This document shows positions 5,833 through 62,116 of a stretch of DNA of 64,000 nucleotides, piece after piece. The translations under genes and the position numbers were made by a program. Below the pieces are notes generated by a model. It did not search any database and had not been told where the DNA came from. It worked only from the letters and a program-made list of their open reading frames with translations. Each line of letters starts with the position of its first letter. Within the stretch, counting starts at the first letter, position 1. Origin of the DNA: Candidatus Latescibacterota bacterium. GTDB lineage: Bacteria > Latescibacterota > CBDCVA01. Location of the stretch: the NCBI GenBank assembly GCA_965222935.1, contig CBDCVA010000002.1, forward strand, positions 1,035,442 through 1,099,441. Direction: 5' to 3'.

Positions 5833-5994
5833 GAGTACCTCAAAGTTGGGAAAATAGGCTCAACGCTCGGTCCGGTCAAATGGCTCCAACGCTGTTGAGC
5901 ACACTGAGAGAAATCCCAGGGTTTCCACCCGCGAGGACGTCTTTCAATGTATGGGAGAATCCATGTCCAGAACGCCGCGATCGCACGGTGCTCC

Positions 5995-15783: not shown

Positions 15784-15886
15784 GTCTCTACCCCTCAACC
15801 GTCTCGGCTCGATATGGCATCGAAGTTCGATAGTCGTTTCAAAATCGGCCTCGCGCGGGCATGACCGGTGGTCTTCTGGTTCACGG

Positions 15887-16648: not shown

Positions 16649-16660
16649 GTCATCCCCTTC

Positions 16661-21123: not shown

Positions 21124-21295
21124 CTCTTGCTCCCCTCCCTGCATGTGCCAGCGGAGCTTCCGCTGCCAGCGGAGCTTCCGCCGGGGAGGGGTCGGGGGTG
21201 GGGTCTCTTTAGGGTGGGGTTAGTGTCACTTTTTCAGCACTGACTTTTGCCCCAAAAATGACGATCTTCCCCCTCGCGCCCGAAGAGAGCAGCGA
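21124..21295. repeat. composite intergenic repeat: A element (GC-rich structured palindrome) plus B element (conserved gene-proximal ~75-bp motif), copy 1
   Basis: A: ctcccctccctgcatgtgccagcggagcttccgctgccagcggagcttccgccggggagggg...gggtgggg. B: ggttagtgtcac-N7-cagcactgactt...aaaatgacgatcttccc...gagagcagc, ending about 20 nt before the ATG at 21316. Confidence 0.85.
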
Positions 21296-21315
21296 CCAAA
21301 GAGGAGAGCGACGCC

Positions 21316-22158
21316 ATGACCCGAATGAAGCTCACGCCACAGCAACTGGCCTTCATCGACACCTTTGGATTCCTTCACTTTCCGGGGCTTCTGAGGGACT
21401 GCATCGATGAGATCATCGGTGCATTCGAAGCCGTCTGGGCGGCCCACGGCGGCGGGCACGACGACAAGGCGCACGACGGCACGGAGCGCTCCTGCATCGT
21501 CCCTTTCGTCGATCAGAGCGAATACCTCTGTGGGCTTCTGGACGATCCTCGCATTGACGGCATCATCGCAAGCCTGCTCGGCGACGACTACAACTACCTG
21601 GCCAGCGACGGCAATTACTACGTGGGAGATACCCGCTGGCATTCCGATGGGGGCTGGCAGCGGCCCATCGTCTACTACAAGATGGCCTTTTATCTCGACC
21701 CATTGACGCGTGATACGGGCGCCTTGCGCGTTATACCCGGCAGTCACAGGCACGAGGATGCGTATGCGGAGAGCCTGCAGCGGGGTCTACCTGGCTCCGA
21801 GGAGGCCTGGGGCGTCCACGGTAGCCAGGTGCCGGCCGTGGCCCTGGAGACCGAGCCGGGCGATGTCGCCGTCTTTCATCAAGGTACCAAGCACAGCAGT
21901 TGGGGCGGCGGTGCGAGACGACGGATGTTCACCCTCAACTTTTCAGCCCGGTATACCCCCGAACAGTTGCCTATGCTGCGCGGCGAGATCAGTAAGCTCG
22001 CCCGGTTCTGGATGGATTCGGTCTATGGCGAGACGATGCTTCGCACCGCTGGCCCCGAGCGTATGCGCCACCTCGAACAGGCCCTGGCCAACCAGGATCA
22101 TCTGCCGGAACTCTCCCGTGCGGCGCGCGAAGAGATGAACGAGCCCTCGCGCGGGTGA
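21316..22158 (+). CDS. PhyH-family Fe(II)/2OG dioxygenase-like protein (fourth paralogue, divergent)
   Basis: TRWHSDGG (HxD) and GDVAVFHQGTKHSS motifs on a double-stranded beta-helix-like layout. Confidence 0.65.
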   Translation: MTRMKLTPQQLAFIDTFGFLHFPGLLRDCIDEIIGAFEAVWAAHGGGHDDKAHDGTERSCIVPFVDQSEYLCGLLDDPRIDGIIASLLGDDYNYLASDGNYYVGDTRWHSDGGWQRPIVYYKMAFYLDPLTRDTGALRVIPGSHRHEDAYAESLQRGLPGSEEAWGVHGSQVPAVALETEPGDVAVFHQGTKHSSWGGGARRRMFTLNFSARYTPEQLPMLRGEISKLARFWMDSVYGETMLRTAGPERMRHLEQALANQDHLPELSRAAREEMNEPSRG

Positions 22159-22186
22159 TCATCGCCCGCAGCGTCCAGGCGCCGCT

Positions 22187-23161
22187 ATGGGATCGTCCCA
22201 GGCCATGATCGTCGATGCGCACGTCCACATCTTCCCCGAGGTCCGGGGCCTGGTGGGCGCTGGTCCCACGCGCGGTCTGGGCTATGGCCGTATCGCCATT
22301 GGCGACGGGGAGATGCAACTGCTCCCGCCCTATGGCGAGAAAACCGTCTTCACGGCTGAAATGCTCCTCGCGAACATGGATTGGGCCGGAGTGGACAAGG
22401 CGGTCATGCTCCAGGGGCCGTTCTACGGAGCGTGCAATCCGTACGTGCTGGAGGCCCAAAGCCGTCATCCCGAGCGTCTATTGGGCGCCGCTTTCCTCGA
22501 TCCGTGGGCCCCCGACAATCGCACAGCCTTCGACGCCATCGCCGCTTCATCCGGCTTTCGGGCGGTCAAACTCGAGTGTTCCGTGTCGGCCGGACTGTGC
22601 GGCATCCACCCCGAGGCCAGGCTCGATGCGCCCGAGATCGCCTGGCTGTGGGCCGAGCTCGAAGAGCGCGGATGGGTCCTGGTCCTCGATCTGGGTGCCG
22701 TGGGCAGTCGCTCCTATCAGACGAGCGCCGTGCGCGCCATCGCCGAAGAGCATCCCGGCCTCCGGATCGTCGTAGCGCATCTGGGCCAACCGACCCCCCA
22801 GGCGGAGGCCGACCCGGCCCTGTGGCGTCTGTGGCTCGATCAGATCGATCTTGGCCGTCTGCCCAACGTGTGGTTTGACACGGCCGCTCTTCCGCACTAC
22901 GTGCCGGACGAGGACTACCCCTACCCCAGCGCGGGACGGTACTTGCGCCTGGCTGCCGAACGCATCGGCCCGGCCAAGATCATGTGGGGCACGGATCAGC
23001 CGGGGCTTCTCGGTTACGCGAACTATCCGCAACTGGTGAAGCTGGCCGCCTTGCACACCGGGTTTCTGTCATCCGATGAACGAGCCCTCATTCTCGGTGG
23101 AAACGCCCTGCACGTTTACCGCTGGTCGTCGCGTTCAGTGATTCGCGAGGGGAAAGATTGA
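22187..23161 (+). CDS. amidohydrolase-2 family metal-dependent hydrolase (TIM barrel)
   Basis: MIVDAHVHIF start, ...VVAHLGQP..., ...WGTDQP... typical of PF04909-type amidohydrolases. Confidence 0.7.
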   Translation: MGSSQAMIVDAHVHIFPEVRGLVGAGPTRGLGYGRIAIGDGEMQLLPPYGEKTVFTAEMLLANMDWAGVDKAVMLQGPFYGACNPYVLEAQSRHPERLLGAAFLDPWAPDNRTAFDAIAASSGFRAVKLECSVSAGLCGIHPEARLDAPEIAWLWAELEERGWVLVLDLGAVGSRSYQTSAVRAIAEEHPGLRIVVAHLGQPTPQAEADPALWRLWLDQIDLGRLPNVWFDTAALPHYVPDEDYPYPSAGRYLRLAAERIGPAKIMWGTDQPGLLGYANYPQLVKLAALHTGFLSSDERALILGGNALHVYRWSSRSVIREGKD

Positions 23162-23239
23162 GCGCCCCTGAGCCTCGGGAATCCCGGCTTCGTTCCCTGC
23201 GCATCCGGGCCAACCGCCCCCCAGGCGGAGGCCGACCTT

Positions 23240-23504
23240 ACTCCCCTCCCTGCAAGCGGGGAGGGGCTGGGGGTGGGGTTCTCTTGCTCCCCTCCCTGCA
23301 TGTGCCAGCGGAGCTTCCGCTGCCAGCGGAGCTTCCGCCGGGGAGGGGGTTAGTGTCACGAATCTAGCACTGACTTAGCCCCTCCGATGCATTATCTTCC
23401 CACCCGTGATGACCGAGAGCGCTTGGACACAGCAAGAGGAGGCCTTCGCCACCGCCTTGGCCGATGGGCTGACCGAAGCCGAATCCGCCCAGGCGGCCGG
23501 CTGC
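23240..23504. repeat. composite repeat: A element (tandem short and full copies) plus long B element carrying a truncated TerS-like ORF start
   Basis: A at 23240-23349; B (ggttagtgtcacgaatctagcactgactt...attatcttcccacccGTGATGACCGAGAGC...) continues as MTESAWTQQEEAFATALADGLTEAESAQAAGC and then diverges. Preceded at 23199-23238 by a 40-bp copy of amidohydrolase gene sequence 22776-22815. Confidence 0.8.
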
Positions 23505-23579
23505 GCAGTGGGAAAAGAAAAGGCCCCCGCGCGGGCTGGGCACGGGGGCCGCATCGTAAAGCGATGGCCAGAGAAGGGC

Positions 23580-24200
23580 CTACCGCAGGAACGCCGCCTT
23601 GACCGCCCTCCACGTGGCCGCTTCCACCGCCACCGAGTCGTTTTGGTTTTCCCCATCGGGTCCAATGATGGGCGCGCCCGAAGTTACCAGCGCTTCGATT
23701 TCTTCGAGCTGTTCGAGCAGGGACAGGTTGGGATCGACCTCCACCCAGTGGCCGGTGCTGATCTTCGCGAAATAGCCGGTGTGCGGAATCAACGGATCCG
23801 GCACGATCAGCGCCCCATCCACAACGCGGTAGAAATACCCGCCTATCTGTGATAGGTTAGCACCGACCTTGATGCGGACATCCGTGCCGCCTGGACCTTC
23901 TCCCATGAGAGTAGTCCCGCCGTGGAAGTCGAGTTGATCCCAGCCGCCCAAGGCTTCTGCAATGGCCTTGAGCTCGTCGAACCTGCCTGCAACGTTGTCG
24001 GGATCGATCTCCACTTCGTCGCCGGACGTCGTGCCGATCGTGACCCCCGTGAAAGAGGGGTCGGAGCGGTCTATCTCCACAAGTTGGCCGTCCACAAGGC
24101 GGAAGAGACGCCCTTCTGCACTGCTGGAACCCACCGTGAAAACGAGCAATACAGCGGCCAGAACGCAGGCCCCAAGACAAAAAACGGAGCGCTTTGACAT
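23580..24200 (-). CDS. hypothetical secreted protein with two internally repeated halves
   Basis: Signal peptide MSKRSVFCLGACVLAAVLLVF; two related segments (FRLVDGQLVEIDRSD...EIDPDN... and YRVVDGALIVPDP...WVEVDPN...). Confidence 0.5.
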   Translation of the reverse strand: MSKRSVFCLGACVLAAVLLVFTVGSSSAEGRLFRLVDGQLVEIDRSDPSFTGVTIGTTSGDEVEIDPDNVAGRFDELKAIAEALGGWDQLDFHGGTTLMGEGPGGTDVRIKVGANLSQIGGYFYRVVDGALIVPDPLIPHTGYFAKISTGHWVEVDPNLSLLEQLEEIEALVTSGAPIIGPDGENQNDSVAVEAATWRAVKAAFLR

Positions 24201-24837
24201 GGCTCAACTCCTCCTTGAAATAAAAGATAGAGGCCCCGCCCTTGTAGACGGGGACTCTATCTATCCTAGATCGAATCGGTGCTTCACCAGCGTGAGGTTT
24301 TTGGACGCCTTAGAAGTCACCAACGGTGATAGGTTGATATGTAGGTTCCAGCAGCAACGGCGTTACCGCTCTCATCCAGCCCATTTCACACGATGCTGTA
24401 CTTCATGCACCAAGGTCCGCACGCACGGTCTGGGCCAGAGCTTCTCGGCAACCGGGAGCGCACTATCGGAACAACATCTTGATGGCGTCCCAACTCGACT
24501 CCACAGGGGCCGCGCCCGTGCCTTGATGCCCCGCTGTTGGGGGGCTTGTTGTAGGTGGTGAAACGCAAGTAAAACAGGGGCTTCGTCTATGGGATGGAAT
24601 ATAACCAACCTACGGCGCAATAAAAGCTTCCGATATCTGTTTGTCAAGAGAAAAATGATGGAGGAGATTTCATTTATGTGTTGTTGGGAAAAAACGATCT
24701 ATGAGCGGAAAGCCGCGCGCAGGGCCTCGATGCTGACCCTAGCCACGGTCCCGGGGTCTGGGCCGATCTGGACCGGCGTCGCCGATGGTCTTCGGGTCAC
24801 TCCCTACTCCGCTAACGATCTCCTCGCCCGTGACCGA

Positions 24838-24993
24838 TGTAGTGTCACACATCCAGCACTGACTTGGCCCCTCCAATGTATTATCTTTCCACCCGTGATG
24901 ACCGAGAGCACTTGGATACCGCAGGAGAAGGCCTTCGCCACCGCCTTGGCCAATGGGCTGACCGAAGCCGAATCCGCTCAAGCGGCCGGCTGC
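24838..24993. repeat. long B element (copy 3), including the 5' end of the TerS-like ORF
   Basis: gtagtgtcacacatccagcactgacttggcccctccaatgtattatctttccacccGTGATGACCGAGAGC...; near-identical to copy 2 over about 150 bp. Confidence 0.8.
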
Positions 24994-25398
24994 ACCCCCG
25001 AAGCCGCCTTGCAACTCTTGAGCGACGCGACTTTCCGCACCCATCTGGACGCGCTCACGCTACAGCGGTGCCGCGCGGCGCGCGCCGAAGCCTTGAGAGT
25101 CGCCCGGCGCAAGCTGCGCGAAGCGATGAACGCCCCCTCGAAGAAGGACCCGCTCGACTGGGTCAAGCTCGTGTGGACGCTATCCAACGACGTCGCCGCC
25201 GGAGATCCCTTCCCCCCTCCTCACGCGGGGCCTTCCTTTATCTCCCCTCCCTGCCTGCCCGCGGAGCTTCCGCCGCCCGCGGAGCTTCCGCCGGGGAGGG
25301 GGTTAGGGGGTGGAGTTAGTGTCACTCATCCAGCACTGACTTTCATCCCGAAAATGACGATCTTACCACTCGCGCCCGATGAGAGCAGCCGCCGATGA
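24898..25398 (+). CDS. small HTH protein resembling the N-terminal DNA-binding domain of phage terminase small subunit (TerS-like); C-terminus reads through repeat elements
   Basis: MTESTWIPQEKAFATALANGLTEAESAQAAGCTPEAALQLLSDATFRTHLDAL... has the spacing of TerS/HTH N-termini. The reading frame continues through the A3/B4 repeat to a stop at 25396-25398, so the 3' part is probably not native coding sequence. Confidence 0.3.
   Translation: MTESTWIPQEKAFATALANGLTEAESAQAAGCTPEAALQLLSDATFRTHLDALTLQRCRAARAEALRVARRKLREAMNAPSKKDPLDWVKLVWTLSNDVAAGDPFPPPHAGPSFISPPCLPAELPPPAELPPGRGLGGGVSVTHPALTFIPKMTILPLAPDESSRR
25241..25392. repeat. composite repeat: A element plus short B element (copy 4) upstream of the ADH gene
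   Basis: ctcccctccctgcctgcccgcggagcttccgccgcccgcggagcttccgccggggaggggg, then agttagtgtcactcatccagcactgactttcatcccgaaaatgacgatcttaccactcgcgcccgatgagagcagc; ADH ATG at 25421. Confidence 0.85.
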
Positions 25399-25420
25399 CA
25401 CAGACGAGAGGAGTGCACCC

Positions 25421-26521
25421 ATGAAGGCCGCAGTGGTTCATGAACTGAATGCCCCCTTCGTCATCGAGGACGTAACGCTCGAAGAGCCCGGTCCGGGTGA
25501 AGTGCGGGTCCGCATGGCTGCCAGCGGCGTCTGTCATTCCGATTGGCATGTGCTCACCGGTGCGTTCCCCCGTCGTCCGATGCCCGTCGTGTTGGGGCAC
25601 GAGGGGGCCGGCGTTGTGGAAGCCACCGGGCGCGGGGTGGCCCATGTCGAGCCCGGCGACCATGTCATCCTGTCCTGGGCACCGGCGTGCGGCGCATGCT
25701 TCTACTGCCTGCGCGACAGGGCCGGACTCTGCGAAACCTTCCTGGGGCCGAGGCGGGAGGGCACCATGCTCGACGGCACCACCCGCATGCGGATTCATGA
25801 CGAAAGGGTGCACCAGTTCAACGCGGTATCCACGTTTGCCGAGCGGACGGTTGTCCCCGAACAGGCGTGCGTCCCGGTGGGTAAGGAGTTGCCGCTGAAA
25901 ATCGCGGCCCTGATCGGCTGTGCCGTCACGACGGGTGTGGGAGCGACCATGTACACCGTTCAGATACGGCCCGGTGACAGCGTCGTCGTTTATGGTTGCG
26001 GTGGCGTGGGATTGAACGTCTTGCAGGGGGCCGCCCTGCACGGCGCTGAACCCATCATCGCCATCGATCAAATGCCGGCGAAAATGGAGCTCGCCAGGAC
26101 CTTCGGCGCGACGCACGCCGTGGTGGCCGACGAGGGGACGACCGACGCCATCCGGGACCTCACGGGGGGACGCGGCGCGGATTATGTCTTCGAAGCCATC
26201 GGTATCCCGGCGGTGCAGGAGGCGGCGTTTGATGCGTTGCACCCGGGCGGGACGCTGGTGCTGGTCGGCGCTGCGCCCGTGGGCTCTTCCATCAGCCTGC
26301 CCCCTCTCACGATCACCTTGCACGAAAAGAGAGTGATAGGAAGCCTCTACGGCTCTTCCAATCCGCGCCGGGACTTTCCCCTGCTCCTGGATCTCTACGC
26401 GGCGGGCAAGCTCAAGCTCGATGAACTGATCTCCCGCGAGTATCGTCTGGACGAGATCAACGCAGCTTTCGAGGCCATGCTGGGCGGCGAGGTGGCCCGC
26501 GGTTTGATCGTCTTCGACTAG
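25421..26521 (+). CDS. zinc-dependent alcohol dehydrogenase (MDR superfamily)
   Basis: MKAAVVHELNAPFVIEDV..., catalytic-zinc ligands in GVCHSDWH and GHEGAG, structural-zinc CGACFYC, Rossmann VVYGCGGVG. Confidence 0.85.
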   Translation: MKAAVVHELNAPFVIEDVTLEEPGPGEVRVRMAASGVCHSDWHVLTGAFPRRPMPVVLGHEGAGVVEATGRGVAHVEPGDHVILSWAPACGACFYCLRDRAGLCETFLGPRREGTMLDGTTRMRIHDERVHQFNAVSTFAERTVVPEQACVPVGKELPLKIAALIGCAVTTGVGATMYTVQIRPGDSVVVYGCGGVGLNVLQGAALHGAEPIIAIDQMPAKMELARTFGATHAVVADEGTTDAIRDLTGGRGADYVFEAIGIPAVQEAAFDALHPGGTLVLVGAAPVGSSISLPPLTITLHEKRVIGSLYGSSNPRRDFPLLLDLYAAGKLKLDELISREYRLDEINAAFEAMLGGEVARGLIVFD

Positions 26522-26577
26522 GCGATGGGTGTCGGTATGCACGAGCGACGGACGTTGGTCCTCAGTGGAGATTTCGC

Positions 26578-27726
26578 ATGGAGATGGTCCGAGTAGCCAC
26601 CTTTGAAGGTCCCGGAGCCGGGCCCCGGATCAGGACCGTGCCCCGGCCGAACGTGCCGGATGTGGCCGCATTGATTCAGATCGGCGCCTGCGGCGTGTGC
26701 GGCACCGACCTCCATATCCTCGAGGGCCACTGGCCCAAGCCCCTGCCCTGGCCCTTCACGCTGGGCCATGAGTTGGCCGGCATCGTCGTCGAAAAGGGCC
26801 CCGCCCTAAAAGCCGATTTCATGGGCCAACCCCTCTCCGTCGGCTCGAAGGTCATGCTGCCGCCGCTCATGCCTTGCGGGGAGTGCGACTACTGCGTGCA
26901 CTACCCGGCGAACGCCAACAAATGTCTCAATCCGACCTACTATGGCCGGTATCTTCCCTTCGATAAACCCCCGCACCTCTGGGGCGGATGGGCCGAGATG
27001 GTCTATGTGGACCTGGAGATGCTGCCGGCCACCAAGATCTACCGTCTGCCGGATAGCATGTCACTGATGCTCGGGTCGTTGGCCGAGCCGCTCACCTCCT
27101 GCGTTCGCGCGCTCAACCGGGCGGTGGGTGTCGGCGGCTTCCGGGTCGGCGATGCGGTAGTCGTTCAGGGCTCGGGGCCCATCGGCCTTCTAACGATGGT
27201 CGCGGCCAGGGAGATGGGCGCCGGCCGCGTCGTGGTGGTGGGCGCCCCCGATCAGCCGCGACTGGCTCTGTGCCGCGAATTCGGCGCCGACGCCACCGTG
27301 TCCATCGAGACCCACACGACAGCGCAGGCGCGGATCGACGCCGTCCGGGAGATCGTCGGCGGTTACGGAGCCGATCTCGTCGTTGAGTGCAGCGGCCATC
27401 CCTCGGCCGGCCCGGAGGGGATCGAGATGCTGCGCGACGGCGGGACCTACGTCGAGATGGGCCAGTTCACCGACGCGGGCTCCATCGAAACCAACTGGCA
27501 CCGCATCTGCACCAAGGACATCAACCTCCTGGGAAGCTGGGCCTTCACCGCCAACGACATCCCCCTGGCCATCGACATGCTCGACCGCGCCCGCGACCGC
27601 TACCCGTGGCACCGAATGCAGACGCGGTTCCCCTTCACCGAGGAGGGCGTCGCGGAGGCGACCGAAAGCGCCATGGCCATGCGCTGCCTCAAGGCCACCA
27701 TCATACCGAACGAGGGGATCGGCTGA
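26578..27726 (+). CDS. zinc-dependent dehydrogenase (MDR superfamily, polyol/threonine dehydrogenase-like)
   Basis: GACGVCGTDLHILEGHW, GHELAG, CGECDYC, VVQGSGPIG. Confidence 0.85.
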   Translation: MEMVRVATFEGPGAGPRIRTVPRPNVPDVAALIQIGACGVCGTDLHILEGHWPKPLPWPFTLGHELAGIVVEKGPALKADFMGQPLSVGSKVMLPPLMPCGECDYCVHYPANANKCLNPTYYGRYLPFDKPPHLWGGWAEMVYVDLEMLPATKIYRLPDSMSLMLGSLAEPLTSCVRALNRAVGVGGFRVGDAVVVQGSGPIGLLTMVAAREMGAGRVVVVGAPDQPRLALCREFGADATVSIETHTTAQARIDAVREIVGGYGADLVVECSGHPSAGPEGIEMLRDGGTYVEMGQFTDAGSIETNWHRICTKDINLLGSWAFTANDIPLAIDMLDRARDRYPWHRMQTRFPFTEEGVAEATESAMAMRCLKATIIPNEGIG

Positions 27727-28108
27727 TAGCGCCGGATGGGAGCGCGCTCATGATCGTGGCCCGGTCGTCTACAAGGTAGATCGGCTCAGCCGGTCGCTTC
27801 TGGAGGGCGCCCATGACCTCTACCCTCACACCTCGGACCTCGAATACTCCGAAGTGAGAGCGGATCCGTTCACCTTGCGAATGGGCAACCGGGCGAACCG
27901 CGTACTCGGACAAGGATCGCTCCACGGCATATGCGCCCGATTCGTCCGTCTGCAAGTCGATGTCATGGACCTCCACAGGAACGCCCTGGAGAGCGTGTCC
28001 CAGACTGCCCGTCAGGGCCCACACGACATCCGTCGAGTCGAGACGCGAGCTGATGAGCAGGAGGGCGTCCAGCACCGTTTCGCTGTCATCCCAGTGAACT
28101 TCGCTCAT
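27701..28108 (-). CDS. small nucleotidyltransferase-fold protein (Pol-beta superfamily, MNT-like)
   Basis: Signature LTGSLGHALQGVPVEVHDIDLQ (G-S-x(9-13)-D-x-D). 3' end overlaps the convergent ADH gene by about 26 nt; lies in a visibly lower-GC patch. Confidence 0.45.
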   Translation of the reverse strand: MSEVHWDDSETVLDALLLISSRLDSTDVVWALTGSLGHALQGVPVEVHDIDLQTDESGAYAVERSLSEYAVRPVAHSQGERIRSHFGVFEVRGVRVEVMGALQKRPAEPIYLVDDRATIMSALPSGAISRSPRSV

Positions 28109-28130
28109 CGGCCTCTGTTATGCCCTGCAT

Positions 28131-28628
28131 TCACCGGATCGACTGGTACAACTGCACGCTCCAACCCCGAAAGCCGTCGCGCTCGTAGAACTGTAGAATT
28201 TGGTGCAAATCCTTCGTGCCGCTAAAGACATGCAAGTGCGTGAAGCCGTCGCGCTTGGCGCGCTCCTTGACTCGCTCGAGGAGCAGAGAGCCGATGCCAC
28301 GAGACCGATGATCCGGGATGACGTAAATGTCGTCAATTTCGAAATATTTCGTCCCTTCAGGGATCACGGCCAGACCGTCGCTCATGCGCTCACTGGCGGT
28401 GACGAACCCAACGACGGTCCCTTCGAGTTCCGCGACGAGGAAATACCCCTGGAACGCCGCTCGTATCTGTTCCTCGCTCGCCGGAACGAAGCCGTAGGTA
28501 ATGTCCTCATGAGCCCATTGAACCTGAAGATGGCGAACGCGCGGCACGTCGGCCTCGGTTTGCCTTCCTGACAGTAGCTGCGGGTTCCATTCGCCGGACT
28601 TGATGAGGCATAATGGACTTGAGCTCAA
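28131..28628 (-). CDS. GNAT family N-acetyltransferase
   Basis: Acetyl-CoA-binding motif ...YVIPDHRSRGIGSLLLERVKERAKRDGF...; start uncertain; lower-GC region. Confidence 0.6.
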   Translation of the reverse strand: MSSSPLCLIKSGEWNPQLLSGRQTEADVPRVRHLQVQWAHEDITYGFVPASEEQIRAAFQGYFLVAELEGTVVGFVTASERMSDGLAVIPEGTKYFEIDDIYVIPDHRSRGIGSLLLERVKERAKRDGFTHLHVFSGTKDLHQILQFYERDGFRGWSVQLYQSIR

Positions 28629-28739
28629 AGACTACGGTTTATCCGAGATTCATCGGAGCGAATAGTTATGTAACGGTCTCCGTAGTCATTCGACATCCCG
28701 TTTAATGCGATGGTAAGCCAAGACGCTCAACGTAGGCTG

Positions 28740-29495
28740 CTACTCGACCCCGAGCGTGGCCAGCCTCTGCAACGCGCCTTCCAATTCCTCAAGCGACCTA
28801 ATTTCCGTGTATCGTGTCGATTTGATGTCCGGGTTCATAACCTTACCACGGTTGATGAGAACCGCCCACATGCCAGCCGCGAGTGCACCGCCGATGTCAT
28901 CGTCAGGATTGTCACCGATATGTACTGCGTGGTTCGGCGGTACGTCCAGCTCTTGGAGCGTCGAATCGAAGATTTGCCGGTCCGGCTTCCCACAGCCGAG
29001 TTCCTCCGACACAGATATCACGTCGAAATAATGGGACAGTCGCGTGACGGCAAGTTTCTCAAGCTGGATTTGCCGCGTCCCGTTCGTAATCACCGCCATC
29101 CTGCATTGGCCACGCAACCGGTGGAGTGTGTGCTCAGCGTCCTCGAATGCCATGTAGCCGATCGTACGGCGAGCTTCACCGTAGGTCCGAGCAGCAAAAT
29201 GCGCTGCTTCTGGGCTGTCGACGCCACTGGCAGTCAACGCAAGGCTCCAAACCTCGACTCTGATTTCGTCTCCCGACTTCTGTGGATCTCCCATGCTCGG
29301 AATCTTTCCAAGACTAGACCACATCTGCTTGCTGGCATGCAGGTAATTCGTCATAAGGCACTGGGCGTCGACACTCGGATAGGTGTCCACGATCTTTCGA
29401 GTCGTGTGCTCTGCCGCCATCCCAGCCCCCCGTTCATCATCTAGCAGAGTTTCGTCGAGGTCGAAACAGATGGCTTGAAATCCATACACAGTCAT
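28740..29495 (-). CDS. HAD-superfamily hydrolase
   Basis: Motif I FDLDETLL, motif III GKPD, motif IV HIGDNPDDDIGGA; start placed at MTVYGFQAICFDLD; lower-GC region. Confidence 0.7.
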   Translation of the reverse strand: MTVYGFQAICFDLDETLLDDERGAGMAAEHTTRKIVDTYPSVDAQCLMTNYLHASKQMWSSLGKIPSMGDPQKSGDEIRVEVWSLALTASGVDSPEAAHFAARTYGEARRTIGYMAFEDAEHTLHRLRGQCRMAVITNGTRQIQLEKLAVTRLSHYFDVISVSEELGCGKPDRQIFDSTLQELDVPPNHAVHIGDNPDDDIGGALAAGMWAVLINRGKVMNPDIKSTRYTEIRSLEELEGALQRLATLGVE

Positions 29496-29791
29496 GGCGT
29501 AAAGTTGGGTTTCAGTCCTCTCGATACTGTGAGCCACATAACGAGCCGCGAGTCATGAGCCAGCGCCGACAGCACCGGAGTAAGACCTGGGCAGCGGGAA
29601 ATCAACTCTCGAAGGCCACGAGCTGAAGCCGGTCCCGTGGAACCGCGTGCTAGCCCCGTCAAGGAACGAATGACGACAGAGTGCGTCACGACGAGTACGC
29701 GTTGCCGCTTTCGATACTTGCTGAGGGCACCCAATAGGACTGACGGAAAACGGGCAGGTCAACCGTGCGGACGCGCCTCCACTGGCCGCTG

Positions 29792-30940: not shown

Positions 30941-31186
30941 ACGTGCGGGTAACGCCATGCCACGATCCTTTCGTCTTTACCGCCGCTCCGGTGCATCACC
31001 ATCCACACCAACATCATCGACGCCGCAGCAATCCGAAGGGTCCTATACTATACCCCCTCTATCCGAAGGAGGCACACTTTTTCACGCCGGGCTACTTTTC
31101 ACGCCGGGCTACCCGCCCAGAGGCGCACCGCCGGCGGTCTCCGCCCGGCGTGTGGATCGACACCGGCTGGCCTCGGGGTAGGGTTT

Positions 31187-32332
31187 CTACCAGTTGGTGT
31201 AGGAGCCATCGCGCCTGTGCAGGTGAGGTCCTTCCCAGAACCTGAACGACTCCTCCACCCTCTCTTCGTTGAACTCGACGCCCAGGCCGGGTTCCGTCGG
31301 CAGGGGATAGCGCGTACCCTCGAGCCGATGCTGAAGCGGAAAGGCCTCCGTCCTGAAGGCGGATTCCCGACAGCGGTCTTCCAGCCAGGCGAAGTTAGGC
31401 ACCGCAGCGCCGAAGTGAATGTGCGCGGCGGTGCTGATCGGACCCAACGGATTGTGCGGCATCATGTCGATGTAGTGGGCCTCGCACCAGCCGGCCACCT
31501 TCATGGCCTCGGTGAACCCTCCCACGTTGCAGACGTCGATCCTCGCGAAGTTGGTCAGGCCCCGCTCGATGTAGGGCAAAAAGGCCCACTTGCTCGAAAA
31601 CTCCTCGCCGATGGCCATCGGCACCGGCGTCATCCGGCGGAGCGCAGCGTAGGCTTCGGGCGCCTCATCGCGGATCGGTTCCTCGAGAAAATCCAGGGTG
31701 CCAGGCGGCATCATCTGGCAGAAGGACGCCGCTTCCGCGACGTTCAGGCGGTGGTGGTAGTCGATCCCGAGCACCGGCGCCCGACCCAGCGCTTCCCGCA
31801 CCCGGGTCATCCATTCCGCGGTCACCGCCGTGGACTCGCGGGGCTCGTGCAGGCACTCGTCTCCGGGCGGATGATGCCAGGCGGGGACAAACCGGATGAC
31901 ATCCCAGCCCTCCCCGACGAGGCGCCTGGCGTCTTCGATGACTTGCGGGCCATCGAGCTCCCGGGCGGTGACGAAACAGGGAACAGCGTCGCGCTGGGCG
32001 CCCCCCAAGAGCTGATACACCGGCACGCCCAGTTTTTTTGCGACGAGGTCGTGCAGCGCGATGTCGATGGCGGAGATGGCCCCCGTGAGGATGCGTCCAC
32101 CCTCGAAGTACTGGCCGCGGTACATCTCCTGCCACAGCGCACCGATCCGCATGGGGTCCTTGCCGATCAAGAATTCGCGGAAGTGCGCCACGGCACCCTG
32201 GACCGCCAGCTCCCGACCCGAGACGCCCGCTTCACCCCAGCCGCAGAAGCCCTCGTCGGTCTCGATCTTCAGCACGAACTGGTTCCTGAACTCGACCCAG
32301 ACCGGATAGGTCTTTATCTCCGTGATCTTCAT
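31187..32332 (-). CDS. enolase-superfamily sugar-acid dehydratase (mandelate racemase / D-galactonate-D-mannonate dehydratase family)
   Basis: MKITEIKTYPVWVEFRNQFVLKIETDEGFCGWGEAGVSGRE... capping domain; barrel metal ligands (...IDYHHRL..., ...FLEEP..., ...DMMPHNP...). Confidence 0.8.
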   Translation of the reverse strand: MKITEIKTYPVWVEFRNQFVLKIETDEGFCGWGEAGVSGRELAVQGAVAHFREFLIGKDPMRIGALWQEMYRGQYFEGGRILTGAISAIDIALHDLVAKKLGVPVYQLLGGAQRDAVPCFVTARELDGPQVIEDARRLVGEGWDVIRFVPAWHHPPGDECLHEPRESTAVTAEWMTRVREALGRAPVLGIDYHHRLNVAEAASFCQMMPPGTLDFLEEPIRDEAPEAYAALRRMTPVPMAIGEEFSSKWAFLPYIERGLTNFARIDVCNVGGFTEAMKVAGWCEAHYIDMMPHNPLGPISTAAHIHFGAAVPNFAWLEDRCRESAFRTEAFPLQHRLEGTRYPLPTEPGLGVEFNEERVEESFRFWEGPHLHRRDGSYTNW

Positions 32333-32385
32333 AGCTCCCTCTCCAGCATCTGCGAGTTCATGCGCGTCCCTTCCCTTCTATGGAG

Positions 32386-32575
32386 AAACCCCACCCCCGG
32401 CTCCTCGTTCGGCGCGGGTGGGAAGATCGTCATTTTCGGGGTGAAAGTCAGTGCTGGATTGGTGACACTAACCCCACCCCCGGCCCCTCCCCGCATGCAG
32501 GGAGGGGAGCAAGATCAAGTTCAAAGGCAACGGGAACGTGCAGAGGGGCCACACATGCAGGGAGGGGAGTAAGAG
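32386..32575. repeat. composite repeat: short B element (reverse orientation, copy 5) flanked by A-element fragments, upstream of the enolase-superfamily gene
   Basis: Reverse complement of 32401-32473 = ggttagtgtcaccaatccagcactgactttcaccccgaaaatgacgatcttcccacccgcgcc...; A-like aaccccacccccggcccctccccgcatgcagggaggggag at 32471-32510 and again near 32550. Confidence 0.85.
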
Positions 32576-32623
32576 CAAGGGCCAGCGTCCACGTCCAGAG
32601 GCCGAACCCTCCCCAAGCCATGC

Positions 32624-33421
32624 TCAGTACGGCAACAGTCCGCCGGATGCGTTATAGGTCTGGCCGGTGACATAGCTCGCGTCCGACGACGCCAGAAAAG
32701 CGACGACGTTGGCGACGTCCTCCGGCTTCTGAATGCGCCCCAACGGTACGCTCGCGACCGCCCGCGCCTTCACCGAACCCACCGGCGCGCCCTCCAGTTT
32801 GGCGATCTCGCGGTCGATCAACTCCCACATCGGGGTGTCCACGATCCCGGCGCACACGCAGTTGACGAGAATGCCGTGCGACGACAGCTCCAGGCCCATC
32901 TGCCTGGTCAGCCCGACGACGGCGTGCTTGCTGGCAGCATACGCGCCCAGCGGCACGCCCTTGCCGGGCGCGATCTTGCCCGCACCGGAGGCGTTGTTGA
33001 TGATCCGGCCGCCCTCGCCCTGGGCGATCATCCGCCGCGCCGCCGCCTGCGAGCAGAGAAACACTCCCTTGGCGTTCACGTCCATCAGCCGGTCCCAGAC
33101 CGCTTCGTCGGTATCCAACAGCGGCGCGACGGCTCCAATACCCGCGTTGTTGACCAGGATGTCAAGCCGACCGAATCGCGCCGCAGCCGCGCGAACCATT
33201 CCCTCAGCATCGTCTTTGTGCGTCACGTCCACCCTGAGGGGGAGGGCCACGCCGCCAGCCGCACCTATCTCCCCGGCCACCTCCACCGCGTTTCCCTCGT
33301 CGATATCCGCGACGGCCACGCTCGCACCTTCGCGGGCCAGCCTGAGCGCGATGGCCCGCCCGATTCCGCGTCCGCCGCCCGTCACGATGGCGGCCTGTCC
33401 CTCCAGATCGTACCTTGGCAC
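32624..33421 (-). CDS. short-chain dehydrogenase/reductase (SDR)
   Basis: TGGGRGIGRAIA cofactor motif, NNAG, catalytic YAASK; GTG start at 33419-33421. Confidence 0.85.
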   Translation of the reverse strand: MPRYDLEGQAAIVTGGGRGIGRAIALRLAREGASVAVADIDEGNAVEVAGEIGAAGGVALPLRVDVTHKDDAEGMVRAAAARFGRLDILVNNAGIGAVAPLLDTDEAVWDRLMDVNAKGVFLCSQAAARRMIAQGEGGRIINNASGAGKIAPGKGVPLGAYAASKHAVVGLTRQMGLELSSHGILVNCVCAGIVDTPMWELIDREIAKLEGAPVGSVKARAVASVPLGRIQKPEDVANVVAFLASSDASYVTGQTYNASGGLLPY

Positions 33422-33445
33422 CGTCGCTTTCCCTCGCCCGTCTAG

Positions 33446-33732
33446 TGCGCCGTCCCACGAATACCCTGGAGAAACCCCACCCCCCTACCCCCTCCCCGGC
33501 GGAAGCTCCGCTGGCGCAAGCAGGGAAAGGGCAAAAGAGGGAACCCCGCCAGCCAGTGGGGAGGGGGGCGCCCACAAGAGGCGCCCCTACGACTGGGCTC
33601 ACTCCGCCCGCGCGGGGACAGGCGCCTTGCAGGTCGAGTGCCTCGGTACCACGATCCGCACCACAAACCCCACCCCCGGCCCCTCCCCGCATGCAGGGAG
33701 GGGAGCAAGATTGTGGCGTCTGCGGCCTGCCC
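33446..33732. repeat. A-element cluster (two A copies) inserted between the VOC and SDR genes, flanked by ~57-bp direct repeats of the SDR 5' end
   Basis: A-type sequences at about 33470-33510 and 33665-33710. Direct repeats 33388-33445 and 33720-33776 (gcggcctg...ccagatcgtaccttggcaccgtcgctttccctcgcccg(t/c)ctag) duplicate the SDR start region. Confidence 0.8.
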
Positions 33733-33773
33733 GTCCAGATCGTACCTTGGCACCGTCGCTTTCCCTCGCCCGC

Positions 33774-34298
33774 CTAGCCCCTCGGCTCCCTAGTCTCGAC
33801 CGGGGTCTCCATGAACTCGAGGACGTATCCATCGGGGTCCTTGAAGAAGGCGACGCGCACGATGCCCCATTCGAGATCGAAGCTGACCGGCTCGGACACG
33901 AACTCGACCCCCCTGGCACTCAGATCCCGATAGGCCGCCCGGATGTCCGGGACGCCGAAGCAGATGTGCGAGTGGCCGACATCGCCCAGTTCGGCATCCG
34001 AGACCCCGCCTTCGGGCGCGTGGTACTGTTGCAGATCGATCTCGATTCCCGGTGTCCCGGGGGCCACGATCCGCACCACGTCCATCACGACGTTGGGCTT
34101 GCCGGCCATCTTCGAGATGGTCTCGCCTTCGAGGCGGTGCCGCTCCACCTCCTTCAGTCCAAGGAGACCGCAGTAGAACGCCAGCGAGCGGTCCATATCG
34201 CTCACCGTGACCGAGACGTGGTCCAGGATGCTGACGGCGTCGTTCATGGTGACCTCCGGGTGTGTGGGCTCCACCAGAGCAGCGGCTCCTTCCTCCAT
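33774..34298 (-). CDS. VOC-family protein (glyoxalase/bleomycin-resistance/dioxygenase fold)
   Basis: ...ILDHVSVTVSDMDRSLAFYCGLLGL... and ...HICFGVPDIRAAYRDLSARGVEF... beta-alpha-beta-beta-beta modules; the internal Met at 34247 is an alternative start. Confidence 0.7.
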   Translation of the reverse strand: MEEGAAALVEPTHPEVTMNDAVSILDHVSVTVSDMDRSLAFYCGLLGLKEVERHRLEGETISKMAGKPNVVMDVVRIVAPGTPGIEIDLQQYHAPEGGVSDAELGDVGHSHICFGVPDIRAAYRDLSARGVEFVSEPVSFDLEWGIVRVAFFKDPDGYVLEFMETPVETREPRG

Positions 34299-34319
34299 CC
34301 CGACCTTCCGATGGGCGAG

Positions 34320-34535
34320 TCCAACCGCGCGGGTGGGAAGATCGTCAATATCGGGGTGAAAGTCAGTGCTGGAAAAGTGACACTAAGTGAACCCCGGCCC
34401 TAAAGAAACCCCACCCCCGACCCCTCCCCGGCGGAAGCTCCGCTGGCACATGCAGGGAGGGGAGTAAAGACAAGAGCCTGCGTCCACGTTCAGAGGCCGA
34501 ACCCTCCCCGGGTGCAGGGAGGGGAGAAGGGCAAG
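34320..34535. repeat. composite repeat: short B element (reverse, copy 6) plus A element, upstream of the VOC gene
   Basis: Reverse complement of 34320-34390 = tcacttagtgtcacttttccagcactgactttcaccccgatattgacgatcttcccacccgcgcgg...; A: aaccccacccccgacccctccccggcggaagctccgctggcacatgcagggaggggag. Confidence 0.85.
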
Positions 34536-34559
34536 GGCAGCCAGTGCGTCCAGTCCGAC

Positions 34560-35432
34560 TCAGAAGCTGATGCGCGAGAGGAACTCGGGCACCCCTCGAA
34601 TGCCGAAATTGACCCTGAAGAGCCCCCCTGCGCCGGGTCCATCCACCGCCTTGTTGTTTCCGCCGATCGTCGTCACGTAGATGTCGGTGAGGTCCGCCCC
34701 GCCCATCGTGACGCTGGAAACCAGCCTGGCGGGGAAATGGACGACCCTTTCCTCGACGCCGTCCGGCGCGTATCGGTGCAGCGACCCGTTTCCCGCGCGG
34801 GCGGACCAGACGTGTCCTTCGGCGTCAACGGTCATCCCATCGGGCAAGCCTTTGTCCACCGGCGTCTCCACGAAGGCCCTTCGGTTGGAGAGGCTCCCGG
34901 CGGCCTCGTCGTAATCGAACAGGCTGATCTCGCAGTCGATGGAGTCGGTGTAGTACATCCCCTTGCGGTCCGGCGTGAAGCCCATCCCGTTGGAGACGCC
35001 GATCCCCTCCAGAATCGGCGTGATCGAACCATCGGTGTCGAGGCGGTACAGCCTTCCCAGCCTCTCGTCGATTCGGTCGCCGTCCATCGGCATGGTGCCG
35101 CAGAAGACCCGCCCTGCGGGGTCGGCGATGACGTCGTTGAAGCGGTTCTCGCGCTCCTGGGGAATCTCGTCGATGAGGGGATGGAGCTCGCCACCCCGCA
35201 GAACGGCGACTCTCCCTCTCGCCATGAACAGGAGCAGCGCCCCGTCCTCCTGGATGGTGAAGCCTCCGATCACCTCGCCATCGTAGCACTGCTCATGCTC
35301 GCCCGTGGCCGGATCAAACCAGAAGATCCGGCCGGTGAGGATGTCCAGCCAGTAGAGACGCTTCTCCAGCGGATGCCACATGGGTCCTTCGCCCACGACG
35401 CACTCGTAATCGACGATCAGTTCGGGTTCCAT
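34560..35432 (-). CDS. SMP-30/gluconolactonase/LRE-family protein (six-bladed beta-propeller lactonase)
   Basis: MEPELIVDYECVVGEGPMWHP..., ...SNGMGFTPD..., ...LPDGMTVDAEGHVW...; start at the ATG at 35430-35432 preceded by a GGAG RBS. Confidence 0.8.
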   Translation of the reverse strand: MEPELIVDYECVVGEGPMWHPLEKRLYWLDILTGRIFWFDPATGEHEQCYDGEVIGGFTIQEDGALLLFMARGRVAVLRGGELHPLIDEIPQERENRFNDVIADPAGRVFCGTMPMDGDRIDERLGRLYRLDTDGSITPILEGIGVSNGMGFTPDRKGMYYTDSIDCEISLFDYDEAAGSLSNRRAFVETPVDKGLPDGMTVDAEGHVWSARAGNGSLHRYAPDGVEERVVHFPARLVSSVTMGGADLTDIYVTTIGGNNKAVDGPGAGGLFRVNFGIRGVPEFLSRISF

Positions 35433-35450
35433 CGCCCTTCTCCTCTCACC

Positions 35451-35570
35451 TGGCCCATGCCCGACATTCCGATGGGGAACTCCAACCGCGAACCCCACCC
35501 CCGACCCCTCCCCGGCGGAAGCTCCGCTGGCAGCGGAAGCTCCGCTGGCACAAGCAGGGAGGGGAGTAAG
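35451..35570. repeat. A element (copy 7) with a remnant of the B-element tail, upstream of the gluconolactonase gene
   Basis: gaaccccacccccgacccctccccggcggaagctccgctggcagcggaagctccgctggcacaagcagggaggggagtaag; the adjacent tggggaactccaaccgcg matches the tail of B copy 6. Confidence 0.8.
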
Positions 35571-35736
35571 TCGGACACAGTCCAGCGCCCTGGTTTGCGC
35601 GTCCTCGGCGGCAGCCGGAGTTGCACAGTCAGCCCGGTTCAGCTAACCTGAGACACAAGGTACATCCAGTCAAGCACAAAAGGCGGAGCGGCTTCCCACT
35701 GCTGTCTTAGGTCAACAGACGTTTAGCGAGATTTCC

Positions 35737-36903
35737 ATGATGGCGCGAACCATCGGCATCGGCGTGATCGGCATGGGCTGGATGGGCGCAGTCCACAGCC
35801 GCGCCTACCGGCAGACGGCGGACTACTTCCCCGAAAGCGGCGTCCGGCCGCGCCTCATCATCTGCGCTGACGATGTCGAGGCCCGAGCGCGCGAAGCGCA
35901 TGAGCGATTCGGCTTCCTGCGCTACACGACGGACTGGAGGGAAGTGATCGCGGCCCCCGATGTCGAGGCCGTCAATATCGCCGCACCCAACAACATGCAT
36001 CTGGAAGTGGCCAGGGAAGCCTCGGCGGCGGGAAAGCACATGCTCTGCGAGAAACCGGTCGGCCGGAACCGGGGGGAAACGGCCGAGATCGAGCGCGCCG
36101 CACGCCGGGCGAACATCTTGACGTGCGTGGGTTACAACTACCGTTGGGCGCCAGTCGTGCAATACGCCCGGCAACTGATCGGGGAGGGGCAATTAGGCAG
36201 ACTGACGCACTACCGGGGCCGCTTCTTCGCCGGTTACGCATGCAATCCGCAGGGCGTGCTTTCGTGGCGCTTCCAGCGCGAACTCGCAGGACTGGGCGCT
36301 CTGGGCGACCTGATGTCACACGCGGTCGACATGGCGCATCTGATCGCGGGCCCCATCACGCGCGTCGTCGGCAACCGCGAGACGTTCATCGCACAGCGTC
36401 CCTTAGCGACAAAGGGCGTCGGCACGCATTTCTCGGTCAGCACGGGCGGCCCGATGGGTGAAGTGACCAATGAGGATTACGCCGGAGCGCTGGTGCACTT
36501 CGAGAACGGCGCGCACGGCACGCTCGAAGCGTGCCGCGTCATCCAGGGTCCTCAGAATCAGATGGCCTTCGATGCGCATGGGACGGAGGGCGCCGTCAGT
36601 TGGGACTTCGAGCGCATGAACGAGATCGGGTTGTACCGCGCCCATGACGATCCGCGACGAGGCGGGTACACGCGCATCCTGAGCGGACCATCCCACCCCT
36701 TTCACGCGAGCTTCAGTCCGGGGCCGGGCATCGGTCTGGACTACGAGGACCTGAAGGTCATCGAAGCCCACCAGTTCCTGCAGTCGATCGTGAATGGACA
36801 ACAGGGCGAACCGGGCTTCGCCGAGGCCCTGGCGGCGGCCGATGTCCTAGCGGCGATGGAGCGATCGTGGAGGACCGGGGCGTGGGAAGCGGTGCGATCG
36901 TGA
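35737..36903 (+). CDS. Gfo/Idh/MocA-family NAD(P)-dependent oxidoreductase
   Basis: [19 protein letters not shown] Rossmann start, EKPV motif, C-terminal alpha/beta dimerisation domain. Confidence 0.85.
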
Positions 36904-37050
36904 ACCCCACCCCCGGTCCCTCCCCGGCGGAAGCTCCGCTGGCAGCGGAAGCTCCGCTGGCACATGCAGGGAGGGGAGAAGAACAAGGGCAAGGGCAACA
37001 AGAACGTGCGGGGCCCTTACCCGCGTGCGGGGAGGGGAGAAGGGCAAGGC
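36903..37050. repeat. A element (copy 8) plus degenerate A-like extension, between the Gfo/Idh/MocA gene and the M24 peptidase gene
   Basis: aaccccacccccggtccctccccggcggaagctccgctggcagcggaagctccgctggcacatgcagggaggggag... followed by gcggggaggggagaagggcaagg. Confidence 0.85.
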
Positions 37051-60381: not shown

Positions 60382-60384
60382 CCG
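60313..60384. repeat. left copy of a ~72-bp direct repeat (3' end of the ADH gene) flanking the methyltransferase insert
   Basis: gagtggaagcgcggctacgaaatgagcgagaacaaggaagcgctcaaagcgatcatcatccccgaatagcc recurs at 62045-62116 with one 1-nt indel and one substitution. Confidence 0.85.
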
Positions 60385-62044: not shown

Positions 62045-62116
62045 GAGTTGGAAGCGCGGCTACGAGATGAGCGAGAACAAGGAAGCGCTCAAAGCGATCA
62101 TCATCCCCGAATAGCC
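62045..62116. repeat. right copy of the ~72-bp direct repeat (ADH 3'-end copy)
   Basis: gagttggaagcgcggctacgagatgagcgagaacaaggaagcgctcaaagcgatcatcatccccgaatagcc. Confidence 0.85.

Follow-up and report, generated by a model that had tools for sequence, protein, structure and literature searches.

A GC-rich, structured repeat, here termed element A, occurs in 12 to 13 copies at 21.1–37.0 kb of a 64-kb window of a Candidatus Latescibacterota bacterium (64,000 nt, contig CBDCVA010000002.1, positions 1,035,442–1,099,441, forward strand; "the window" denotes this whole stretch), where it is interspersed with the genes of a catabolic cluster. Element A is probably a non-coding, structure-prone and recombinogenic repeat of the repetitive extragenic palindrome (REP) class, which contains a class II triplex core and would drive the mosaic make-up of this cluster. 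Judged from its sequence, the core is a G/C-rich class II intrastrand triplex motif with the architecture of the repeat known as BoxC, PIT or TMECO. This kind of repeat is already known, whereas the sequence variant, the nested 18-nt hairpins and the unusual local density are new. Element A is a marker of unstable mosaic DNA and neither a gene nor a proven regulator. The initial annotation of the window had described a cluster of GC-rich repeats over 16 kb and had called its density unusual; both statements are confirmed. Not a single copy of A was found across the other 48 kb.

In the 12-row alignment the copies of A read (G/A)AACCCCACCCCC-NN-CCCCTCCCC, followed by zero, one or two times GCGGAAGCTCCGCTGGCA, by CATGCA and by GGGAGGGGAG. 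On the G-rich strand the core has the form CCCCTCCCY-loop-GGGGAGGGG-N3-GGGGTGGGG, given as an oligonucleotide by CCCCTCCCTGCATGCGGGGAGGGGCCGGGGGTGGGGTT. The consensus, the outer inverted repeat CCCCTCCC/GGGAGGGG and the pairing of full with short copies agree with the initial annotation, which had missed that the head AACCCCACCCCC mirrors the hairpin arm and with it the triplex or G-quadruplex (G4) core. The head is kept in 9 of the 12 copies and finds no Watson-Crick partner in the predicted folds; its interruption (T) mirrors the single A-T pair of the hairpin arm. A head mirroring the arm with T opposite A fits an antiparallel purine-motif triple helix of C-G·G and T-A·T triplets. In the variants with two interruptions GGAGAGGGG is followed by GGGGTGAGG, that is, by its mirror image and neither by a direct nor by an inverted copy, a pattern which simple duplication or inversion would not yield.

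Loop 1 harbors the 18-nt hairpin unit GCGGAAGCTCCGCTGGCA, present zero, one or two times per loop in the window and three times, once inside an arm, in a close relative. The program TRF reports the 18-nt period at five loci with 2.0 copies and 100% match. Two tandem perfect hairpins enclosed by the outer inverted repeat had initially been described; the tandem 18-nt period holds, while the first unit (CGGCGGA...TCCGCTG) contains one G-T pair and is therefore an imperfect hairpin. Moreover, the short copies at 23241, 32470 and 33666 reveal a simpler element, whose loop has received the tandem hairpins as an insert of variable length (zero to three units); the hairpins are thus not the core. The two units of the copy A25234 both carry one private variant (both GCGGG), which suggests local duplication or slippage, and local slippage or recombination without mobility may explain the 18-nt unit altogether.

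The inventory, compiled by repeat finding, self-BLAST and the alignment, comprises the 12 aligned copies and one 3′ half; self-BLAST of the window, proposed as a check by the initial annotation, recovers the A copies. The hairpin CAGCGGAAGCTCCGCTG (17 nt, up to two mismatches) occurs 12 times in the window, exclusively within 21149–36959, compared to 0.04 occurrences expected from shuffles. The C-rich strand is the minus strand in the four copies starting at 21130, 23241, 23287 and 25241 and the plus strand in the other eight. Delineated by the alignment and supported by TRF are the full copies with two units at 21130–21204 (head, Y arm, units and R arm, also found in the strict triplex scan described below, with an extra partial head at 21212–21221), 35491–35566 (A35487, in the spacer separating the divergent SGL and GFO genes, found in the scan as well) and 36903–36978 (A36899, directly adjoining the GFO stop codon), furthermore 23287–23349, which has two units, lacks the head and directly adjoins the element B2, and 25241–25316 (A25234, two variant units, degenerate head AACTCCACCCCCTAA). 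The alignment together with the strict scan gives the short copies without units at 23241–23280 (head and plain hairpin), 32470–32509 and 33666–33705, all strict triplex motifs, as well as the copy with one unit at 34407–34464, a strict motif with a loop 1 of 24 nt. The alignment also places 33473–33532 (one unit, degenerate R arm), 34500–34526 (hairpin without head) and the degenerate headless short copy 37012–37039, which reads CCCTTACCC-loop-GGGGAGGGG. Spacer comparison adds two fragments near the 32470 copy, a head at 32387–32401 and the 3′ half at 32552–32569. Degenerate hexamer runs (AAGGGC/CAAGGG/AAGAAC) follow the R arm at 36979–37000, 34527–34545 and 32510–32545.

Class II triplex motifs were defined as in ITxF, namely as a 5′-pyrimidine arm, a purine arm and a 3′ reverse-Hoogsteen block with stems of 6–15 nt and at most one mismatched triplet; a strict scan employed 9-nt stems and at most one bad triplet. 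The strict scan yields seven motifs in the window, all of them inside A copies, compared to none in 200 dinucleotide shuffles. They contain zero or one mismatch (a terminal T-G) and are composed of eight C-G·G triplets and one T-A·T triplet. By definition both loops span 1–6 nt. In the motif 33475–33566 loop 1 measures 60 nt and loop 2 measures 5 nt; the other six motifs have a loop 2 of 3 nt, and in the three short copies loop 1 is 6 nt long. In architecture, excess over random expectation, intergenic position without fixed orientation and association with variable DNA, A agrees with the class II triplex motifs.

The core also represents a four-run G4 motif, GGGG-A-GGGG-TCG-GGGG(G)-T-GGGG. 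For the G-rich transcript ViennaRNA with G4 energies predicts a four-layer G4 of −40.8 kcal/mol for the tail alone, and for the short copy a G4 of −45.0 kcal/mol compared to −24.9 kcal/mol for the hairpin. The RNA secondary-structure prediction called for by the initial annotation gives stable hairpins, with −18 to −49 kcal/mol for the A copies. In vivo, A may fold into a triplex or a G4.

Every copy of A is located between Pfam-supported genes, which encode a thiamine pyrophosphate enzyme and members of the PhyH, amidohydrolase, alcohol dehydrogenase (ADH), MR_MLE, SDR, glyoxalase, SGL, GFO and M24 families; the Pfam gene map and the alignment thus bear out that the repeats are always intergenic and occur in both orientations, as had been noted initially. 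Adjacent A copies are in direct orientation in all four pairs, and the A-bearing spacers of the window are paralogous mosaics of each other. In about 10 of the 13 copies the G-rich strand is the sense strand of the neighbouring genes, a bias which could reflect either a transcriptional role or mere co-duplication with element B, a second repeat whose adjacency to A is as the initial annotation had described it.

A transcriptional role would be that of punctuation, with an RNA hairpin or G4 ending or pausing transcription, or protecting the 3′ end of the upstream mRNA, and insulating the following B. This explanation is favoured by the sense orientation of the G-rich strand in these copies, which follow one gene and precede either B or another gene, by the stability of the predicted hairpins and by the predicted four-layer G4 of the transcript. 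REPs of E. coli stabilise upstream mRNA and provide an analogy from general knowledge. Intrinsic terminators, like A, are GC-rich stem-loops between genes, but A lacks a U-tract and is therefore not a classical terminator; it further differs by its two orientations, its conserved non-pairing flank and its side-by-side copies. No T run was seen after the A copies, and none of the 15 calls of a terminator scan across 20.5–38 kb falls on a head- or unit-bearing copy; one weak call (minus strand, 37024–37008, 5 pairs, tail ACGTTCTTGT) coincides in part with 37012–37039, the copy that is degenerate and lacks a head. In addition, A36899 and A35487 are found in other orientations or contexts, the orientation within the wider repeat family is unbiased (see below), PIT/BoxC is reported to have neither promoter nor terminator activity (PMC4666352), and the bias within the window is equally well explained by co-duplication of A and B. 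The sequence lends no support to the terminator or insulator module suggested by the initial annotation, for which a role at the RNA level is possible, and punctuation is an improbable explanation for A.

Since the 18-nt unit keeps frame and long open reading frames (ORFs) read through the copies, A might represent a real repeated peptide, or else an artefact of the assembly. Both readings can be given next to no credence. The peptides of the type PAELPLPAELPPGRG ("PAELPL") originate from read-through ORFs and are spurious, as had been recognised initially; the copies, which are found in either orientation, fall between the stop of one Pfam-supported gene and the start of another, and the lengths of head and linker differ by non-multiples of 3, which argues against a coding repeat. 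Three independent short-read Logan contigs from two sequencing runs (L128, L130 and L131) match the window at 100% identity. All three begin within A copies, L128 within 36903–36978, as is to be expected because short-read assembly breaks at repeats; the copy 21130–21204 is also contained in L130 and L131. The repeat family is furthermore carried by a relative, and A is thus not confined to a single assembly.

Structured repeats which separate most genes over 16 kb, in a region whose gene content differs from that of the relative, would also be reminiscent of the attC sites between the single-gene cassettes of an integron. This explanation is very improbable. The ends of the aligned copies, upon inspection, do not show the R′′/R′ core sites (RYYYAAC/GTTRRRY), and neither an integrase nor another recombinase was found in the 64 kb. 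Besides, A and a promoter-like module jointly precede genes, two arms are oppositely oriented, and copies stand side by side. The coding, artefact and integron readings were rejected on the basis of the Logan contigs, the relative, the frame lengths and the lack of att sites and integrase.

The relative is a locus (L129) on a 4.2-Mb contig of the European Nucleotide Archive (ERZ25067264, ctg836636_27x_l), which was identified by its GFO homologue (97% identity) and is syntenic with the window, with genes 95–98% identical. It carries both the A and the B family, yet in a different arrangement, and this one comparison reveals at least six differences in A-bearing spacers. The segment 33446–33721 of the window (276 nt), which contains the copies at 33473–33532 and 33666–33705, is missing from L129 along with one copy of a 56-nt direct repeat X. 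In the window the two copies of X (95% identical; repeat finding) flank the 276-nt segment, copy 1 at 33390–33445 comprising the SDR start and copy 2 at 33722–33777 covering the glyoxalase stop; in L129 X is single (7416–7471) and the glyoxalase stop leads directly into the SDR start. X accordingly duplicates the junction between the glyoxalase stop and the SDR start. Conversely, L129 contains an A-bearing insert of 183 nt between the M24 and DHDPS genes, flanked by an imperfect direct repeat of ~10 nt, for which the window represents the empty site. Comparison with a related locus, again a check proposed initially, reveals gain, loss and reshuffling of A-bearing segments.

The remaining differences concern the modules themselves. 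The copy after GFO has two units in the window and three in L129, where the third is located inside the R arm, and in other L129 copies the units are joined directly to arm halves. In the spacers SGL-GFO, glyoxalase-SGL and MR_MLE-SDR the numbers of A and B modules differ and leaders are swapped. The REP/MITE-like character proposed by the initial annotation (MITE, miniature inverted-repeat transposable element) is hence right as a class, with regard to short, extragenic, structured elements with indel polymorphism; the flanks by which a MITE would be recognised are 56-nt and imperfect ~10-nt repeats.

Two further differences between relatives were seen. The centre of the island, 27701–29537, has a lower GC content (57%) and encodes aminoglycoside-nucleotidyltransferase-like, GNAT and HAD proteins; in L129 (1–1923) this stretch is replaced by a DUF952 gene and an unknown gene. 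In a 94%-identical metagenome relative (L003) the 38 nt upstream of MR_MLE (1–38, compared to 32333–32370 of the window) are unrelated, except for the 13-mer CAGCATTTGCGAG, which is found in opposite orientation in the window and may indicate a small inversion.

A mechanism can be proposed which connects the anatomy of A with these rearrangements. The pyrimidine arm CCCCTCCCY, the loop and the purine arm GGGGAGGGG would form a hairpin on the G-rich strand, and after the 3-nt linker GGGGTGGGG would fold back on the purine arm, yielding two sets of four C-G·G triplets with one T-A·T between them; alternatively, the same two G blocks could give a four-run G4. Loop 1 would be expanded by zero to three copies of GCGGAAGCTCCGCTGGCA, and A would travel in mosaic units with B. 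Upon becoming single-stranded during replication, repair or transcription the G-rich strand would fold, and the folded strand could stall a polymerase or lead to DNA breakage. Repair by slippage, template switching or inter-copy recombination would then generate unit expansions, partial copies, flanking duplications and the gain or loss of A-bearing segments, with a mosaic, fast-changing catabolic gene cluster as the outcome. Folding of A is thus the putative cause of the rearrangements, and any effect on expression is likewise putative.

Several observations weigh against this interpretation. The unit-bearing copies have a structured loop 1 of 24–42 nt, which exceeds the defining 1–6 nt, three A copies lack the head, and in Watson-Crick folding energy the copies have only a modest advantage over shuffles (z −0.7 to −2.4). 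The distinction between a mirrored and a direct third block is confounded by the mostly symmetric arms, so that only the two-interruption class is informative. In vivo footprinting with dimethyl sulphate (DMS) revealed no protection of TMECO (PMC4666352), and 13 copies in 16 kb with none in the other 48 kb are unlike the dispersed BoxC. That repeats and variable DNA occur together does not tell which of them causes the other; something else could make the cluster variable, or the units of A and B could be co-duplicated promoters. The locus provides one triplex/G4 motif in a naturally graded set, with zero to three nested hairpins in or next to the loop, and two close genomes with datable indels are good material on whether such structures cause rearrangement.

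The core of A is widely distributed. A metagenome scan with head and Y arm retrieved at least 120 loci of 34–73% GC, most of which, as far as listed, also carry features that were not searched for: the arm GGGGAGGGG with "AG" behind it, a loop of 3–9 nt and a linker of the purine-purine type. Among the matches listed the base preceding the head is G or A, never T. The "AG" after the arm is kept in 72–77% of 81 family members, and the tail AGCAAGAT is also found in a copy of the cyanobacterium Allocoleopsis (L124, 1541–1548). BLAST with the short copy detects the family in Sphingomonas, Novosphingobium, Methylobacterium, Cupriavidus, Nostoc, Allocoleopsis and others, where it is unannotated, and blastn against 5,426 E. 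coli genomes and against phages found nothing. Megablast of the A region against a plasmid collection gave no match either. Relative to the neighbouring genes the orientation is unbiased (++ 9, −− 9, +− 5, −+ 4), as counted with crude ORF calls on metagenome loci, 23 cases lying "inside" spurious ORFs.

In contrast to the core, a 22-mer containing the 18-nt unit has only two chance coding matches in genome contigs (the source organism is not among the GTDB representatives), and the unit is therefore private to the source lineage. As judged from the divergence of its proteins, the source organism appears to be an uncultured, deep-branching bacterium: its LepA is 66% identical to the best match outside itself, and the second-best match of GFO is 79% identical and belongs to Candidatus Poribacteria. 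Exact-protein look-ups with MR_MLE, GFO, amidohydrolase, glyoxalase and ADH2 found none of them on record. With A, the motif family is seen beyond the Proteobacteria and Cyanobacteria, namely in an uncultured lineage which branches deeply. The Di Nocera survey of GTAG/CGTC REPs contains no family matching A (PMC3733652), and literature searches with raw sequence strings of A returned eukaryotic noise only.

Within the family, the motif is associated with DUF559 genes (PF04480). At one motif-rich metagenome locus such a gene is located between inverted motif copies, and among the matches listed by tblastn DUF559 genes lie 30–130 nt from the motif in 7 of ~120 loci. Inverted copies, either head-in or head-out, are present on both flanks of DUF559 in five of them (L030, L102, L123, L036 and L047); at L060 the downstream copy is degenerate, and L089 shows an upstream motif only. 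Among 11 DUF559 loci of cultured genomes from a plasmid collection (L134–L144) there are seven with a class II motif no further than 200 nt away, compared to 3.9% of control windows taken from these loci, and 19 of the 41 motif hits in these loci fall within the 6.9% of sequence nearest to the DUF559 gene. In E. coli a BoxC is found 169 nt downstream of the DUF559 gene ycjD (L133), beside a duplicated 3′ fragment of ycjD, and a degenerate copy at the stop codon. Each lineage has its own variant of the motif, and it is this variant that flanks the DUF559 gene of the lineage. Directly downstream of DUF559, L135 (Photobacterium sp. GJ3) contains 14 triplex-motif copies in 1.6 kb (5386–6968) and L142 (N. 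gonorrhoeae) six alternating copies (5482–6175).

A might be seen as a MITE-like derivative of a selfish DUF559 cassette, with head and hairpin as terminal structure or target of a small free-standing Vsr-like, EDxHD-related endonuclease gene. Cleavage followed by repair would then allow copies without the gene to be moved or multiplied in trans, as happens to REPs and REPINs through REP-associated tyrosine transposases (RAYTs). We regard this only as a tentative explanation. It is compatible with the preferred reading of A as a recombinogenic triplex-core repeat and would supply the agent. The seven metagenome loci, the seven plasmid-collection loci and ycjD near the motif argue for it, as do the lineage-matched variants and the L129 insert with its ~10-nt flanking direct repeats. 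Predicted inversion targets show an enrichment of DUF559 products (PMC9881135), and DUF559 is related to EDxHD homing endonucleases (PMC9403480), both of which agree with such a cassette. On the other hand, no DUF559 gene was found in the window, in L127 or in L129, four of the 11 plasmid-collection loci lack the motif under the criteria used, and a consistent target-site duplication is missing, with 56 nt in one case and an imperfect ~10 nt in the other. Side-by-side A copies in the window are direct rather than inverted, no biochemical link between DUF559 and the repeats is known, and for TMECO an association with mobile elements was looked for and not found (PMC4666352).

As the window and L129 contain no DUF559 gene, the association bears on the motif family and not directly on this locus; free-standing DUF559/EDxHD (Vsr-like) genes are bracketed elsewhere, in several phyla, by the same motif family, to which the copies of the window are linked by family membership only. 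BoxC-type repeats including A may possibly, although the odds are against it, be cis-acting ends or targets of DUF559 genes in the manner of REP and RAYT, with A carrying the 18-nt module and a portable B and bringing catabolic genes into new transcription units. The association itself is strong, and no report linking DUF559 to these repeats was found among the searched papers that mention DUF559; it offers a candidate enzyme behind the repeats. If true, the partnership would account for how these repeats, a class that has lacked an assigned function since the 1990s, arose and spread and why they are unstable.

Element B is a conserved module of ~75 nt, TTAGTGTCAC-N6-8-CAGCACTGAC...GATCTTCCCACCCGCGCC, which sits between A and the start codons, 35–70 nt upstream of six different genes. 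By repeat finding, the promoter- or leader-like module B1 was located upstream of a PhyH gene (21220–21302, plus strand) and further copies at 23350–23406, 24840–24906 and 25318–25398 (plus strand) as well as 32404–32469 and 34327–34395 (minus strand). The B modules gave no sigma-70 match in a scan and no Rfam match; B is probably a portable promoter, operator or leader. An unannotated small ORF at 24895–25230, whose promoter region is a B element and of which a shortened duplicate exists at 23406–23504, has a weak helix-turn-helix match to a phage terminase small subunit (PHROG 641, E=2e-4); its open frame continues through A25234 into the start of B4 and stops at ~25320.

Among the Pfam matches in the window, including unannotated ORFs, there is no transposase, integrase or RAYT except for an IS1595 transposase fragment at 41208–41810. 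This fragment lies between two GHL10-family paralogues (39338–43632, 85% identical over 300 nt), an arrangement kept in L129. Rfam gave no gathering-level match in the 64 kb and nothing relevant at E<=5, and the sole match in 20 related loci is one tRNA; a CRISPR array was dismissed, as the only CRISPR-like Rfam match is sub-threshold and located inside an ADH gene (26924). Several PhyH-family dioxygenase paralogues are encoded at 15022–17401 and 21316–22158, and the window further contains genes for an ankyrin-repeat protein (43766–45031), a TPR/TMEM260-like glycosyltransferase, a luciferase-like monooxygenase (LLM) and enolase-superfamily members. Such genes bring to mind uncultured bacteria which live in association with sponges or degrade recalcitrant carbon. 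The spacer between MR_MLE and LLM contains a perfect 17-nt tandem duplication (twice TTTTCACGCCGGGCTAC, 31079–31112), and two genes at a distance of 1.7 kb share a 68-nt repeat of 99% identity at their 3′ ends (60316–60383 and 62049–62116).

In comparison with known systems, A is a short extragenic imperfect palindrome in many copies and shares with REPs, bacterial interspersed mosaic elements (BIMEs) and the REPIN-RAYT system the arrangement in mosaic clusters and the presence/absence polymorphism (PMC3116915, PMC3733652). It differs from them by the lack of a GTAG/CGTC tag, the flanks being (G/A)AACCCC... and ...GGGGAG, by neighbouring copies in direct orientation where REPINs are inverted doublets, and by a conserved non-pairing head which mirrors the arm. 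A Y1 (RAYT) transposase was found neither in the 64-kb window nor among the genes of L129. With respect to MITEs, the sole inverted repeat of A is the hairpin itself, and the two insertions are flanked by the 56-nt and the imperfect ~10-nt repeats described above.

The 18-nt unit resembles another kind of element. The small dispersed repeats of heterocyst-forming cyanobacteria are reportedly hairpin units of ~20 nt which are nested in other repeats and vary in copy number and position from one related genome to the next (said to have been described by Elhai et al. 2008). The unit is likewise a very small, nested hairpin, a likeness at the level of the description, but it was seen only inside A elements, in loop 1 or in the R arm, and never alone.

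The closest resemblance is to the G/C-rich class II intrastrand triplex motifs and BoxC, for which Hoyne et al. (2000) are reportedly the source. Their architecture has been described with TMECO as the E. coli representative (Holder et al. 2015, PMC4666352), which forms a triplex in vitro as judged by circular dichroism (CD) and nuclear magnetic resonance (NMR) spectroscopy, and which is always intergenic, without strand bias, sometimes present as inverted pairs and enriched in strain-variable loci (PMC4666352). A fails the consensus of TMECO/BoxC sensu stricto, CCCTCNCCC-N3-6-GGGNGAGGG-N3-GGGNGAGGG (PMC4666352), with its arms CCCCTCCCY/GGGGAGGGG/GGGGTGGGG. These have a single central interruption (G4-A-G4/G4-T-G4) in place of the BoxC arm GGGNGAGGG, and loop 1 holds zero to three nested 18-nt hairpins and reaches 42 nt, compared to 3–6 nt in BoxC. 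Whereas ~23 BoxC copies are dispersed over 4.6 Mb, 13 copies of A are crowded into 16 kb and, unlike BoxC, are joined into mosaic units with a promoter-like module. Both have in common the succession of C-rich arm, loop, G-rich arm, 3-nt linker and mirror G/T(A) block with 9-nt stems, and both are strictly intergenic, found in either orientation, sometimes paired, located in variable DNA and potentially able to form a G4.

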